Below the pieces are notes generated by a model. That model was not told where the DNA came from, did not search any database, and saw only the letters and a list, made by a program, of their open reading frames with translations. Shown in pieces: positions 7,554 through 13,218 of a DNA stretch of 53,631 bases. This DNA is from Candidatus Ancillula kalotermitis (lineage in GTDB: Bacteria; Actinomycetota; Actinomycetes; Actinomycetales; Bifidobacteriaceae), in assembly GCA_031273495.1 (NCBI GenBank), contig JAISRT010000041.1:1-53631 (forward strand), in the 5' to 3' direction. The position numbers and the translations under genes were made by a program. The stretch's first letter is position 1, and every line of letters begins with the position of its first letter.

Positions 7554-7569
7554 CCTCCGAACGAAAATG

Positions 7570-7578
7570 CGCTATACT
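7570..7578 (+). promoter_or_regulatory. -10 box CGCTATACT for tRNA-Arg (and dgt)
   Basis: TATACT ends 8 nt before the mature tRNA 5' end (7587). Sits back-to-back with the priA box 16 bp away. Confidence 0.6.
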
Positions 7579-7586
7579 AGAGATAT

Positions 7587-7659
7587 GCCCTCGTAGCTCA
7601 GTGGATAGAGTGACGGTTTCCGGTACCGCAGGTCGCAGGTTCGACTCCTGTCGAGGGCA
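7587..7659 (+). tRNA. tRNA-Arg (anticodon CCG)
   Basis: Hand-folded 73-nt cloverleaf: acceptor GCCCTCG/CGAGGGC, D arm GCTC..GAGT, anticodon loop TTCCGGT, T arm GCAGG-TTCGACT-CCTGT, discriminator A. CCA is not encoded. Confidence 0.85.
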
Positions 7660-7660
7660 C

Positions 7661-8911
7661 TTGTCGAAAATTGAGTATTACTCTGCAGCTGATGCAGCGC
7701 GTTTTTCTGGTAATGAAAAGCATAATTCTGAACGCACTGATTTTGCTAGGGACCGCGCGCGCATCGTCCATTCTTCAGCATTGCGACGGCTTGGCGCCAA
7801 GACTCAGGTTATGGTTGCAGGCTTCGATGACTTTGTGCGAACGCGCCTAACACACTCCCTTGAAGTCGCTCAAATCGGGCGTGATATAGCATCTAGCCTA
7901 GGCCTCAGCCAAGATGTAGTTGAAGCAGCGTGCCTTGCACACGACCTCGGACACCCACCGTTCGGGCATTTTGGTGAATCGCTACTGGATGAAGTTGCCA
8001 AAGATATAGGTGGGTTTGAAGGGAATGCGCAGACTTTCAGGATTCTCACGCGCCTGGAGCCCAAAATCTTCAACCAAGACGCTGTGCCTTCTGGGTTAAA
8101 CTTGACGCGCGCAACACTTGACGCAATTCTGAAGTATCCCTGGGGTGCAGGTGAACTCAAAGACGTGAAGAAGTTCAACTATTACAGGGATGACGCGCCT
8201 GTGTTTGATTGGGTCAGGCAATATACACCAGAGAACAAGGTGCGCAAGAAGTGCATTGAGGCGCAAGTGATGGATCTGGCGGACGATATTAGCTACGCAA
8301 CGCATGATGTTCAGGACGGACTAGTTTCAGGCGGTTTTGCTGGTAACACCCTAAAAGTGCTTGAAGACCGCGGGCGCTGGAATTATATGCTTGAAGTGGC
8401 AGCGCAATGGTTTGGGAACGAGTTTACCGGAATAGACTTCGACTCTGCGAGGTATCGGCTCAAGGGGCTTGGTGTTTTCGACCTGGAGTATACTGGCACC
8501 TATATTAGCGCGGCGAAGTTGAGCAACCATATTTCAACACTTATCGGGCGTTTCGTGTCGAGTGCGATTTTAGCGACGAAGAATTACGCAGAGTCACTGG
8601 AGCTCGACGGGAACTTGACGAGATATAATGCTGACCTTATTTTGCCTACTGAACAGCGTGATGAGATTAAGCTTTTGATGGCGTTTTCTGCCGCATTTGT
8701 CATGTTGCCCAAGCGCGAGGGGAGAGAAGAAAAGGATGAGGCTGACATAATCGAGCGCCTGGTCGAGCATTTTTCAGTAGAGGACAACTTGGAGCCACAG
8801 TTTCTTGAAGTAGCGCGGCGTGCCGAAAATAGTGCCGAAAAGTTGCGCAACGTTGTTGACCAGATAGCGTCTTTGACAGATTTTAGCGCTAGAAAGATCG
8901 CTGGAAGGTAA
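7661..8911 (+). CDS. dgt: dGTP triphosphohydrolase-like HD-domain protein
   Basis: HD motif (LTHSLEVAQIGR...AHDLGHPPFGH) and N-terminal FARDRARIVHSSALRRLGAKTQV. The tracked ORF (7601) begins inside the tRNA. The first in-frame start after the tRNA is TTG 7661. Confidence 0.8.
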   Translation: MSKIEYYSAADAARFSGNEKHNSERTDFARDRARIVHSSALRRLGAKTQVMVAGFDDFVRTRLTHSLEVAQIGRDIASSLGLSQDVVEAACLAHDLGHPPFGHFGESLLDEVAKDIGGFEGNAQTFRILTRLEPKIFNQDAVPSGLNLTRATLDAILKYPWGAGELKDVKKFNYYRDDAPVFDWVRQYTPENKVRKKCIEAQVMDLADDISYATHDVQDGLVSGGFAGNTLKVLEDRGRWNYMLEVAAQWFGNEFTGIDFDSARYRLKGLGVFDLEYTGTYISAAKLSNHISTLIGRFVSSAILATKNYAESLELDGNLTRYNADLILPTEQRDEIKLLMAFSAAFVMLPKREGREEKDEADIIERLVEHFSVEDNLEPQFLEVARRAENSAEKLRNVVDQIASLTDFSARKIAGR

Positions 8912-8915
8912 AACG

Positions 8916-8924
8916 TGCTACACT
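8916..8924 (+). promoter_or_regulatory. Extended -10 box TGCTACACT upstream of tRNA-Pro/MFS
   Basis: Followed by ACTGAT-ATT, the same initial transcribed sequence as at 26209 and 31280. The predicted TSS (~8931) is 101 nt before tRNA-Pro. Confidence 0.55.
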
Positions 8925-9031
8925 ACTGATATTGTGGTATACGGGTTTATGCTCGTAGACTGTTTTTACAACTAAATATACAATTCTACTATCGTCAAGT
9001 ATACTGGGTTTCTTGTGTGCAGGCGGTTTCA

Positions 9032-9105
9032 CGGGCATTAGCGCAGCTTGGTAGCGCGTTCGACTGGGGGTCGAGAGGTCGCAAGTTCAAATCTTGTATG
9101 CCCGA
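9032..9105 (+). tRNA. tRNA-Pro (anticodon GGG)
   Basis: Hand-folded 74-nt cloverleaf: acceptor CGGGCAT/ATGCCCG, D arm GCGC..GCGC, anticodon loop CTGGGGG, T arm GCAAG-TTCAAAT-CTTGT, discriminator A. CCA is not encoded. Confidence 0.85.
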
Positions 9106-9106
9106 C

Positions 9107-10420
9107 GTGAATTTGCGTAGATTTTTGCACTCAGTTCGGAACAAGCCTAATGGTGTTCTGTTGTTGAGCATTATACTGGTCGGACTGATTGCACGAGCAC
9201 CAACTTCGGTCTATGCACCAGTCGCGGCGTATCTTGAGCCACATTTCGGAGTTGACCACGCCACTTTCGGGTGGCTCTCAGGCATACCAGTCTTCTGTTT
9301 CGCGCTGTTCACTCCGTTGGCGTCACGTTTTATAGCGAAACGGGGCCTTGATGACGCGTTCTTGACTGGGATAATTATCACAACACTTGGCGTCGCACTG
9401 CGCCTCGTTGACAATTTTCTAGTCTTGTTCATCGCTACGATTATTATAGGTGCTGGGATAGCGTTTATGAACACTACGGTCCCACTAATGGCAGCGCGCT
9501 CATTCCCGAAGAAGTTCGCTATTGTGACTGGCACCTACTCGTCATTCTGCAACCTTGGCGTGGTGTTTGCGTTCTCGTTCACGGCACCTTTTGCTGATAT
9601 AATCGGGTGGCAGCTCTCAATGTTCATGTGGTTCTTTATGTGCGTCCTCAATATACTGGTTTTCGTAATATACATCTTCAGAAGGAAGCGCGGTAAGTCC
9701 CGCAAGCAGTTCAGGGTCGACGGGGAAGACTGGTCGCAAATCAAGAAACTGCGCCAGATTTCGAAGAAGGCAACTGAGTTTGATGCTGAGAGTTATGTTC
9801 AGCCCGCTGGAGTGTCCGAGACTGTTGAGGAAGCCCGTAACTCACGTCAAATCCACCGACAAGCGTTCACCTACGGAATATGCTTGCTCTTCATCTGTCA
9901 GTGTGTCGCGTATTTCACGTTCGCCGCCTGGTTGCCCAAGATTTTGCAAGACACTCTCAATATGGACGCTTCTACTGCGGGTATTGCGAGTTCAATGTTT
10001 CCACTAATGGGGATCTTCGGTTCGATTGCGGTGACACCATTTTTGAAGCGTGTTGGTGTGCTACCTTCATTCATAGGTATAGCACTCGGCTGGTTGATGT
10101 TGCCCCTCGGACTCCTCTTCCTACCAGAACTGTGGGCAGTATGGTGCGCCGCTGCAGGGATATGTCAAGCAGCGAATTATGTCACGATGTTCGACGCGAT
10201 AAAGAAGTGGTCCAAAACGAGTGAAGAGACTAGGAAATTATCGTCCGCTACGCAGGTTTCCGCGTATATCTGCGCTGGCATTTCGCCTTCGCTTTTCGGT
10301 GCGATTCACGATGCAACACTCCAGTGGCCGATTGTAATCAGTTTACTCGGTGTGACGCTCTTCATAATGCTCCTATCGGGATTCTTGACATATAGAACAA
10401 TAAAGGAGGGGCGGGGATGA
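9107..10420 (+). CDS. MFS transporter (about 12 TM segments)
   Basis: Hydrophobic multi-helix ORF with a central basic loop ([10 protein letters not shown]). The tracked ORF (9017) runs through tRNA-Pro. In-frame starts after the tRNA are GTG 9107 and TTG 9113. Confidence 0.75.
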
Positions 10421-11298
10421 CAGTAGTACTAAACGGTAAAGAACTGGCGGCGTTAACAAAGGCGGAGTTGAAGGAGCGTGTCGAAAAGCTGAAGGAGCAT
10501 GGCGTTGAAGTGGGGTTGGGAACTATTTTGGTGGGTGATGACCCTGGCAGCATTAAATACGTGGCAGGCAAGCATCAGGACTGTAAAGATGTGGGAATAA
10601 GTTCACTTCGCATCGACCTGCCGTCAACTGCGACCGAAGCCGAGATACTTGCCGCAGTTAAAAAGATGAATGACGACCCGAAATGCACAGCGTTTATCGT
10701 GCAGCTCCCGTTGCCAAAAGGTGTAGACCAAAATGCCGTGCTCGAAGCGATTTCACCCGAAAAAGACGCCGACGGGTTACACCCCTTCAATCTGGGTTCA
10801 TTAGTCCTGAATGTTAATGAGTCCTTGAAGACCGCGGTCCCTTGCACACCGTTCGGTATTATCAAGTTGATACAACACTATTTGGGTGAGGATTTTCTTG
10901 ATGGTAAACATGTTGTAGTCCTTGGGCGTGGCGTGACCGTTGGTCGGTCTATTGGGCTATTGTTGACGCGCAAATGTGTCAATGCCACCGTCACACTTTG
11001 TCACACTGGGACGCGGAATCTTGAAGAGCTGCTTAAAACTGCAGATGTCGTCGTTGCTGCAATGGGCAAGGCGCATTTCTTGCAGCCTGAGATGCTCAAA
11101 AGAGGTGTCGTGCTAGTCGATGTTGGCGTGTCCCGTGACTCACAGACCGGTAAAATTGCCGGTGACATCGACCCGCGGTGTTACACTGACCAAAATGCTG
11201 AGGCTGTGCTAGCGTATTCACCGAACCCAGGTGGTGTTGGACCGATGACCCGTGCGATGCTACTAGAGAACGTCGTCGCGCGCGGAGAGTTGATGTAG
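10417..11298 (+). CDS. folD: Methylenetetrahydrofolate dehydrogenase / methenyl-THF cyclohydrolase
   Basis: 293 aa with an FolD-typical sequence ([24 protein letters not shown]..., [14 protein letters not shown]). Overlaps the MFS stop by 4 nt. Confidence 0.9.
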
Positions 11299-11583: not shown

Positions 11584-11592
11584 TGCTATACT
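11584..11592 (+). promoter_or_regulatory. Extended -10 box TGCTATACT, leaderless whiB
   Basis: Spacer TAAGGT, then GTG 11599. Confidence 0.7.
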
Positions 11593-12609: not shown

Positions 12610-13218
12610 ATGAGTAACGCGAAGGATGAAATCGGTTATCTAGATTTCGAGTTGCCAAAAGATATTGCAGTGCACACTGGCATTTCGGAAACTAAATCTG
12701 CGGCATTGGTGACTTCTATTAATGATATTGGCGTTCTAGCAGCACTTTGCGTGGTGAACGAAATTGAGGCAGTAATTATGCCTAGCGGTGTTTTCGGCAC
12801 AGTAGCATTTCTCCATGAGCTTAAAGATGGTGCACCCGAAAAAGCGGTCACAAAAATTACTCTAGCAGTCGATGGTCTTGACGCAGTTCTTGTTCAGTAT
12901 CGGTTCGAACGAATGGAGGCCAAACTGTATACAAAAGGTGAATTCGTTGAAGATTTGGTGCCCACTGTGGTTGTCGGCAATTTTTCTGAAGTCGCAGAAG
13001 ATGCTCTAATTGGCGAGATTGACCTCTACGACCTCATGAAAACTGGTAGTGCAAAGGTTGATGCCAACCACGCCTTGCGCAATCTGCCGTCTAACTTTGT
13101 GCCGAAGAAATATCAGCGCGGTGCGGAACGAACGTCAGGTAATTTCAACGCGTTCCCGACCTTCGCGATGCCAAAAGATGTCGCGCTCCAGACATTGAAG
13201 AGATTCGAGAATGTGTGA
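12610..13218 (+). CDS. Hypothetical acidic cytoplasmic protein
   Basis: 202-aa ORF with an AGGAGG SD 7 nt upstream. No motif I recognise. Its stop overlaps the GTG of the next gene. Confidence 0.6.
   Translation: MSNAKDEIGYLDFELPKDIAVHTGISETKSAALVTSINDIGVLAALCVVNEIEAVIMPSGVFGTVAFLHELKDGAPEKAVTKITLAVDGLDAVLVQYRFERMEAKLYTKGEFVEDLVPTVVVGNFSEVAEDALIGEIDLYDLMKTGSAKVDANHALRNLPSNFVPKKYQRGAERTSGNFNAFPTFAMPKDVALQTLKRFENV

Follow-up and report, generated by a model that had tools for sequence, protein, structure and literature searches.

Organization of the tRNA-Pro/MFS locus

This analysis concerns the junction between a tRNA-Pro gene and a gene of the major facilitator superfamily (MFS) in Candidatus Ancillula kalotermitis, within a window of 53,631 nucleotides (nt) that constitutes contig C23 of its genome assembly (GCA_031273495.1). 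The assembly, hereafter G000, spans 1.07 Mb in 62 contigs, is 81% complete and has a G+C content of 49%. It was compared with the other three genomes of the genus (G001, G002 and G003; four genomes in total) and with an out-group of three other genera of the family (G012, G014 and G023). The tRNA genes were called with ARAGORN and with the Rfam model RF00005 (cut-off 29 bits).

At the locus, the discriminator base of tRNA-Pro(GGG) is followed by a single nucleotide, C9106, and then by GTG 9107, which opens the MFS reading frame; the start of folD overlaps the MFS stop codon (Table 1). The unit located upstream, formed by tRNA-Arg(CCG) and a dgt-like gene with its own promoter (gcgcTATACT, 7569-7578), has the same geometry, consisting of the discriminator (N73), an encoded C74 and a start codon. 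An initial annotation, made from the sequence of the window, had described both junctions and their identical spacing; its coordinates for tRNA-Pro coincide to the base with those given by ARAGORN, Rfam and the open reading frame (ORF), and the tRNA-Arg/dgt spacing is likewise the one that we find.

Table 1. Features of the tRNA-Pro/MFS locus; positions are counted from the first nucleotide of the window.
Feature	Positions	Strand	Remarks
tRNA-Arg(CCG) and dgt-like HD phosphohydrolase gene	7587-8911	+	tRNA 7587-7659; A7659, C7660, TTG 7661; dgt to 8911
Extended -10 element GTGCTACACT	8915-8924	+	Core TGCTACACT at 8916-8924; no matching -35 at 17-18 nt
Predicted transcription start, A8931	8931	+	Seventh nt past the -10; inferred from genome-wide box spacing
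14-codon frame	8931-8975	+	ATT GTG GTA TAC GGG TTT ATG CTC GTA GAC TGT TTT TAC AAC TAA
Hairpin (8936-8961) followed by GUUUUU	8936-8968	+	Weak, intrinsic-terminator-like; 25 nt past the dgt stop
ACAACTAAATAT-type motif in the tRNA-Pro leader	8967-8982	+	CAACT[GAT]AATA; 17 genomic copies
tRNA-Pro, anticodon GGG	9032-9105	+	Discriminator A9105; ARAGORN; RF00005 60.4 bits, E=4e-12
In-frame ATG within the tRNA-Pro acceptor stem	9098-9100	+	Public gene call (440 aa)
Encoded C74	9106	+	Only base of the CCA end that is encoded; the tRNA would end here after the proposed cut
MFS transporter coding sequence	9107-10420	+	437 aa; GTG start 9107-9109, TGA 10418-10420
folD	10417-11298	+	Overlaps the MFS stop (ATGA, 10417-10420); Pfam THF_DHG_CYH and C-terminal domain

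The MFS ORF is matched by the Pfam family MFS_1 (PF07690) from residue 23 onward, with 126 bits (cut-off 33.4; E=1.7e-36), and has a short, positively charged N-terminus ahead of the first hydrophobic transmembrane (TM) helix. Its homologues are labelled "CP family cyanate transporter-like MFS transporter" in the JGI data, and by this naming the protein would be cyanate-transporter-like. The acceptor stem of tRNA-Pro(GGG) shows compensatory changes in the G001 and G003 orthologues.

The frame of the MFS gene remains open back through tRNA-Pro to position 9017. In the alignment of MFS proteins, the conserved N-terminal block begins about 7 residues ahead of an R-N-x-P motif, and therefore the start must lie at or before 9122, which leaves GTG 9107, TTG 9113 or ATG 9098. 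The public call at ATG 9098 is likely an annotation artefact of the abutment between the tRNA and the coding sequence. On inspection, no sequence resembling a Shine-Dalgarno (SD) motif was found before GTG 9107 or ATG 9098, and the 3' half of the tRNA contains none at a usable distance; with only one base between the discriminator and GTG the junction lacks a leader with a ribosome-binding site such as that of the tufB message. The 3' end of the 16S rRNA, which carries the antiSD, was not found in the G000 assembly.

Promoters and leaderless genes

The core of the -10 element upstream of tRNA-Pro, read together with the preceding G8915, is a perfect match to the genome consensus GTGCTAyAcT; this consensus, GTGCTATACT, was built from 198 leaderless candidates. 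The more degenerate TGCTAYAMT occurs 466 times in the genome, where about 33 copies are expected, and 28 times in the window against the 1.5 expected from shuffles; many G000 tRNAs are preceded by this type of promoter, in the form (TTTAACA, 17-18 nt) TGCTAyAmT. ORFs of at least 100 amino acids (aa) begin exactly 6 nt past the box 116 times, and another 32 and 15 begin at 7 and 8 nt, respectively, which gives 163 genes; therefore at least 160 genes are leaderless, with the seventh base after the box as the transcription start. Leaderless starts are thus the rule in G000. This signal of promoter-made leaderless genes is also strong in G001 and G003, with 14 cases over 85 kb and 12 over 63 kb, respectively; G002 shows it weakly, and G012, G014 and G023 hardly at all.

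The box at 8916-8924 is the only consensus box on the + strand between 7553 and 11584, and therefore there is one recognisable promoter for tRNA-Pro, MFS and folD, which, from this layout, appear to share it. The initial annotation had singled out this box as the only strong one and had predicted the transcription start at 8931; the genome-wide data agree with both points, and A8931 fits the 6-nt spacing of the 116 leaderless genes. Read-through from the tRNA-Arg-dgt unit into the tRNA-Pro unit is also possible. The next box on the + strand, TGCTATACT at 11584-11592, is followed after 6 nt by GTG 11599 of a whiB-like gene, which is predicted from this spacing to be leaderless.

Three other promoter candidates were considered and rejected. 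The sequence caagTATACT, whose hexamer at 9000-9005 was found by a generic scan (9/12) and would be a nearer promoter for tRNA-Pro, lacks the TGC extension typical of the promoters of this genome. An internal folD promoter, TGATATAAT at 9595-9603, is probably a chance occurrence, as TGA, TGG and TGT variants are found at background frequency; the same holds genome-wide for boxes in which A, G or T replaces the C before the hexamer. Finally, a promoter within tRNA-Pro could place the transcription start at GTG 9107, but on inspection the tRNA has no TAnnnT at the distance that this requires.

ATG is the most frequent codon 6 nt past TGCTAYAMT in G000 (124 cases), followed by ATA (43), ATT (33) and ATC (15). 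Of the 91 sites with ATA, ATT or ATC, 34 head ORFs of at least 100 aa, a share far above the 20 in 235 of the remaining non-start codons (P=3e-9), which suggests leaderless initiation at AUH codons throughout the genome; by this comparison, AUU may be usable as a leaderless start in G000.

Recurrence of the junction across the genus

The tRNA flanks of G001, G002 and G003 were collected in full for a genus-wide count, in which the starts of ORFs of at least 100 aa were recorded at offsets of 0 to 150 nt from the 136 tRNAs of the four genomes. Such a start lies directly past C74 in 9 of the 136 tRNAs, while each of the other offsets was found at most 3 times; the Poisson probability of this enrichment is 3e-8 and rises to 5.5e-5 when the junctions are reduced to 6 independent origins. 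"Start directly after C74" is the sole rule that fits all 9 junctions. The initial annotation had judged two such junctions unlikely to be coincidental, and on these statistics the geometry exceeds what chance would produce. By comparison, none of the 136 tRNAs of G012, G014 and G023 has such a junction (Fisher P=0.003 versus the genus), and tyrS and topA have no upstream tRNA at the loci examined outside the genus. Two of the out-group genomes are nearly complete, with sizes of 0.8-1.1 Mb.

In G000, the N73-C74-start arrangement is found in 4 of 34 tRNAs: Arg(CCG)-dgt with TTG, Pro(GGG)-MFS with GTG, Arg(TCT)-murA with GTG, and Gln(CTG)-tyrS with ATG. In two more cases the start lies 3 nt further, namely Leu(CAA)-topA, whose protein begins canonically with MGKSLVIVESPAKAKK, and Ala(TGC), located upstream of a gene for a 93-aa membrane protein. 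The junctions of G001 are Gln-tyrS, Thr(GGT)-purD (canonical N-terminus VRILVVGSGAREHA) and Asn-aminotransferase; those of G003 are Gln-tyrS and Thr-purD, while G002 has only a 62-aa ORF after tRNA-Ile. The junctions thus occur only in the genomes with a strong signal of promoter-made leaderless genes (G000, G001 and G003).

The strongest single case is the tyrS junction, in which tRNA-Gln(CTG), the C and the tyrS start are found in three species whose proteins are about 60% identical, with ATG as the start codon in G000 and GTG in G001 and G003. Inside the tRNA, 9 nt upstream, there is an in-frame TAG; the register is identical even though the N-terminus differs by 4 codons. The Thr-C-purD junction, with a GTG start, is common to G001 and G003. 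We found no prior description of such junctions in bacteria in the open-access full-text literature.

tRNA 3' ends and the candidate cutting step

The base that separates the discriminator from the start codon is itself nearly universal in the genomes compared, as C74 is encoded in 33 of the 34 G000 tRNAs, in 99 of 102 tRNAs of the sister species and in all 136 of the three other genera. A complete CCA is found in the genes of just 2, 7 and 19 tRNAs, respectively, so that in the seven family genomes the totals are 268 of 272 tRNAs with C74 and 28 with CCA. The RNase Z profile (TIGR02651) gave no match above its cut-off in any of the 31 family genomes searched, G000 included; therefore, another nuclease must mature the tRNA 3' ends, and RNase Z, to which a cut of this kind is usually ascribed, was discarded as the cutting enzyme, a role for which the initial annotation had named no candidate. 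An enzyme of the CCA-adding type is present in the four genomes of the genus, and RNase E/G was found in two of these four incomplete assemblies.

In Propionibacterium acnes (PMC3848588) and Streptomyces coelicolor (PMC4681348), differential RNA sequencing revealed endonucleolytic cuts within the encoded CCA of tRNAs, "always between the Cs", and P. acnes also lacks RNase Z (PMC3848588). By analogy, the near-universal C74 and these published cuts between C74 and C75 point to a cut located one base beyond the discriminator.

MFS relatives and the exchange of gene arrangements

The MFS orthologues of G001 and G003, which are 43% identical, follow tRNA-Tyr with a spacer of 19-27 nt and start with GTG; in G001 the start is preceded by the SD sequence GAGGAG and 7 nt. 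A promoter, TTGACA-17-TGGTATAAT, lies ahead of tRNA-Tyr, and the tRNA-Tyr-MFS pair is an ordinary mixed tRNA-mRNA unit. The tRNA-Pro(GGG) of these species has its own TGGTATAAT box, 39-54 nt upstream. Scans of genome and metagenome contigs with the MFS protein revealed no closer relatives of the locus, and a large protein database contained only three homologues, of metagenomic origin, with identities of 45-49% (L187, L188 and L189). In L187 the same MFS-folD order is preceded by TATAAT, 6 nt and ATG, making the gene leaderless from its own promoter, and in L188 the MFS gene is preceded by roughly 35 nt of leader that include an SD. L189 also has the MFS-folD order and an SD; in it, as in L187, the two genes overlap or abut.

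The start of the L189 gene deserves a separate description. In this contig (Logan SRR14710902, 2384-2501), the SD is AAGGAGG, and no ATG, GTG or TTG is found before the first TM helix; the gene call starts at GTG 2501, which truncates the protein, and ATA 2405 is a possible non-canonical start.

Other genes show similar changes of context: dgt and murA are found in ordinary surroundings in the relatives, with an SD or TGATG coupling, and the aminotransferase gene, which in G001 abuts tRNA-Asn, has in G000 a promoter that makes it leaderless. Judging by these arrangements, the same genes seem to switch among leaderless by promoter, leaderless by tRNA, and leadered. In the genomes compared, the tRNA-Pro-MFS junction itself is lineage-specific. 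The initial annotation had held that lack of conservation of the junction in relatives would count against it; in a narrow sense this is what we find, as the MFS orthologues do not follow tRNA-Pro, but it is outweighed by the maintenance of the junction type at other genes.

Such mobility could also mean that genome shrinkage and rearrangements at tRNA genes brought the two genes together as a by-product, with no role in expression and with MFS transcribed from an unrecognised promoter or translated from a downstream start. The variable tRNA neighbours are in line with this idea, given that the MFS gene lies past tRNA-Pro in G000 but past tRNA-Tyr in G001 and G003 and that dgt and murA belong to ordinary operons in the relatives; weak box-like sequences within MFS, such as that at 9595-9603, and the copies of tRNA 5' fragments described below, which point to rearrangement, agree with it as well. 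A by-product, however, does not account for the sharp spike at a single offset or for conservation across species at 60% protein identity, and the canonical N-termini of tyrS, purD and topA leave no room for a downstream start. Boxes without C at -1 are found at chance frequency, the MFS block needs a start at or before 9122, and the smaller, nearly complete genomes of the family (0.8-1.1 Mb) have no such junctions. We regard this explanation as quite improbable.

Copies of tRNA 5' fragments are found beside intact tRNA genes in G000, for example CCACCCGTAGTTCAGTTGG after tRNA-Met and the 5' half of tRNA-Tyr upstream of tRNA-Tyr; the sites are on contigs C24 (about 9440-9460, - strand) and C62 (about 12800-12833, - strand). 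Their appearance suggests past rearrangement or integration at tRNA genes. In G001 (L126) and G003 (L167), the first 20 nt past tRNA-Met contain a -10 box (TGCTATAAT or TGTTATAAT), which precedes the leaderless-looking starts of ORFs of 412-421 aa; by their layout, these cases would represent a promoter packed between a tRNA and a gene, rather than a direct junction.

Proposed origin of the MFS-folD message

The geometry of the junction with its enrichment and conservation in the genus, the layout of promoters, a family without RNase Z in which almost every tRNA encodes C74, and a genome that relies heavily on leaderless starts lead us to infer that tRNA-Pro(GGG), MFS and folD would be transcribed as one RNA from the promoter at 8915-8924. 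RNase P would generate the 5' end of tRNA-Pro, and an endonuclease other than RNase Z would cut after C9106, or one base earlier, after which the CCA-adding enzyme would complete the tRNA. The cut would leave an mRNA that begins with GUG 9107 and carries a 5' monophosphate, to be translated by the leaderless route, as predicted for at least 160 genes of this genome. In this scheme tRNA-Pro would be the entire 5' leader of the MFS-folD message, and its excision would strip ATG 9098 from the mRNA. Giliberti et al. reportedly found in 2012 that E. coli translates leaderless mRNAs with a 5' mono- or triphosphate and not those with a 5' hydroxyl. We consider it moderately probable that a 3' cut after C74 releases the leaderless MFS-folD mRNA, a reading built on sequence comparison.

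Cotranscription could also be combined with a translation that does not depend on the cut, if ribosomes loaded on the uncut precursor, either at GTG 9107 independently of an SD or at ATG 9098. Each transcript would then end as a tRNA or as a message, and the tRNA fold may shield the 5' end from decay. Several features suit this alternative: the frame is open to 9017, the protein that begins at ATG 9098 has an N-terminus as long as that of its relative P0002, the public gene call is placed at this codon, and the 25 nt past GTG 9107 are A/U-rich and weakly structured. Neither codon, however, is preceded by an SD-like sequence, and 30S subunits load poorly at a start codon that directly adjoins a stable tRNA helix. 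The in-frame stop within the tRNA at the tyrS junctions rules out upstream starts there, and without a 5' end defined by a cut the exact one-base register need not persist. We therefore regard translation from the uncut precursor as unlikely, although somewhat less so than the by-product explanation discussed above.

Release of the message by a cut after C74 must itself be weighed against several observations. A terminator-like hairpin lies directly past the predicted transcription start, and in G003 another follows tRNA-Pro(GGG). GTG and TTG are minority starts, used by only 23 of the 163 promoter-made leaderless genes, and the alignment of MFS proteins does not separate GTG 9107 from ATG 9098 or TTG 9113. 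The pairing of tRNA-Pro with MFS is not conserved, as the orthologues follow tRNA-Tyr and L187 to L189 have no upstream tRNA. As for the enzyme, RNase E/G was not found in the incomplete G000 assembly, and the published cuts concern tRNAs that encode CCA and fall between the two Cs, whereas the base past C74 is here a G.

The leader upstream of tRNA-Pro

The hairpin located between the predicted transcription start and tRNA-Pro folds with -10 kcal/mol (z=-2.6), only 1 of 200 shuffles being as good, and was also found in the terminator scan. It may be a weak terminator of dgt, which transcripts from 8931 would also have to pass. The complete leader of 101 nt (8931-9031) folds no better than shuffles (z=-1.5) and has no match in Rfam, which in this region identifies only the two tRNAs.

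The initial annotation had also proposed a micro-ORF at the beginning of this leader. The frame exists exactly at the positions given, 8931-8975, but its status as a gene finds no support: the chance that 14 codons contain no stop is about 0.5, and there is no canonical start, the first codon being ATT. At the leaderless position, ATH codons are not followed by an excess of short ORFs of 10-40 codons (20 of 91, compared with 74 of 235 for other codons), and the micro-ORF is probably not a gene. It contains no Pro codons, and therefore the charging of tRNA-Pro cannot be sensed by it; the idea of a proline-sensing leader peptide was discarded. With its ATT start, the lack of Pro codons and an alternative fold of z=-0.96, the leader does not qualify as a leader-peptide attenuator despite its hairpin with five U, and none of the relatives carries this leader.

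A broader form of this idea, compatible with the release of the message by a cut after C74, is that the leader acts as an attenuator in which translation of a leaderless micro-ORF, from AUU 8931 or GUG 8934, across the hairpin sets the degree of read-through into tRNA-Pro, MFS and folD. ATT is exactly at the leaderless position, where ATH codons head long ORFs more often than expected from other codons, and the micro-ORF spans the hairpin and its run of five U. A precedent exists in mycobacteria, where leaderless short ORFs act as attenuators according to a preprint (bioRxiv 10.1101/834739). On the other hand, an open frame of this length is expected about half of the time, no significant anti-terminator fold was found, the leader as a whole is neither unusually structured nor known to Rfam, and the leaders of tRNA-Pro(GGG) in G001 and G003 are shorter and share no sequence with it by eye. 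An attenuator at this site seems to us improbable, to about the same degree as a by-product of rearrangement.

The leader also contains one of the 17 genomic copies of the motif ACAACT(G/A/T)AATAT, about half of which lie 2-12 nt upstream of tRNA genes without a box or of tRNA 5' fragments. Copies were found on contigs C2, C4, C24, C28 and C62 of G000, and a second repeat (ACAACTGAGCTACA...CAGCGTAGCGA) is present 3' of several tRNAs. These motifs flanking tRNAs could be a processing signal or a repeat family.

Comparison with known systems

The closest system is the tRNA punctuation of mitochondria, reportedly set out by Ojala, Montoya and Attardi in 1981. In both cases a tRNA abuts a protein gene in one transcript, which is proposed here, and the spacing of 0-3 nt typical of mitochondria is found at A9105-C9106-GTG 9107. 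Mitochondrial mRNAs have 5' ends set by excision of the tRNA, leaders of 0-3 nt and SD-less translation, and we propose the same for the MFS-folD message. The differences are also clear: we are dealing with a bacterial chromosome with many promoters, in which only 4-6 of 34 tRNAs are affected; the tRNA delimits a gene on one side only, the 5' one, the dgt stop being 120 nt away from tRNA-Pro; and the stop codons are complete. In addition, there is no RNase Z, the proposed cut would fall after C74 and not after the discriminator, and the case is known here through its sequence.

Leaderless genes have been described in Mycobacterium tuberculosis and M. smegmatis (Shell 2015, PMC4633059), P. acnes (Lin 2013, PMC3848588) and S. 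coelicolor (Romero 2014, PMC4681348), members of the same phylum in which, as proposed here, the start codon (ATG, GTG, rarely TTG) is at the 5' end of the message. Those 5' ends are primary triphosphates with a -10 box 6-7 nt upstream, whereas the one proposed here would be a processed monophosphate set by a tRNA. The cuts between C74 and C75 in the latter two species match the N73-C74-start register, and repair by the CCA-adding enzyme is assumed in both situations; there, however, the CCA is encoded and has no link to a downstream coding sequence, while here the CCA is not encoded and the start codon lies past C74.

Bacterial examples of the separate elements are also available. The thrU-tyrU-glyT-thrT-tufB operon of E. 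coli places tRNAs and a protein gene under one promoter and separates them by RNA processing, an organization that resembles the one proposed here. Processing leaves tufB with an ordinary SD-bearing leader, which the junction of the window lacks, and the tRNA-Tyr-MFS units of G001 and G003 are of the tufB kind. As for leaderless messages made after transcription by an endonuclease, MazF yields them in E. coli (Vesper 2011, as described in PMC3848588); in that summary of the work, MazF is a stress-induced toxin that cuts at ACA, leaves a 5' hydroxyl, involves no tRNA and is not constitutive, in all of which it would differ from the cut that we propose.

Implications for the biology of the genus

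Extended to all the junctions, the data raise the question of whether this genus has repeatedly and independently co-opted the cutting of tRNA 3' ends after C74, by a nuclease other than RNase Z, to make the 5' ends of mRNAs. This would supply leaderless housekeeping messages (tyrS, purD, murA, dgt, topA, the aminotransferase and MFS-folD), would constitute a bacterial counterpart of mitochondrial punctuation, and would arise only where leaderless initiation dominates. We regard this generalization as about as likely as not.

In practical terms, the proposal would mean that gene callers misplace starts of this type, as illustrated by the call that begins inside tRNA-Pro, and that the set of junctions is useful for finding the actinobacterial tRNA 3' endonuclease and for testing the translation of monophosphate leaderless mRNAs in bacteria. 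If the proposal is true, a mechanism held to be typical of mitochondria would also work in bacteria, and the processing of a tRNA, instead of a promoter or a ribosome-binding site, would set the start of a message and permit its translation. The levels of the transporter and of folD would be tied to the transcription of a tRNA gene, and there would be a functional reason for the near-universal presence of an encoded C74 in a family that lacks RNase Z.

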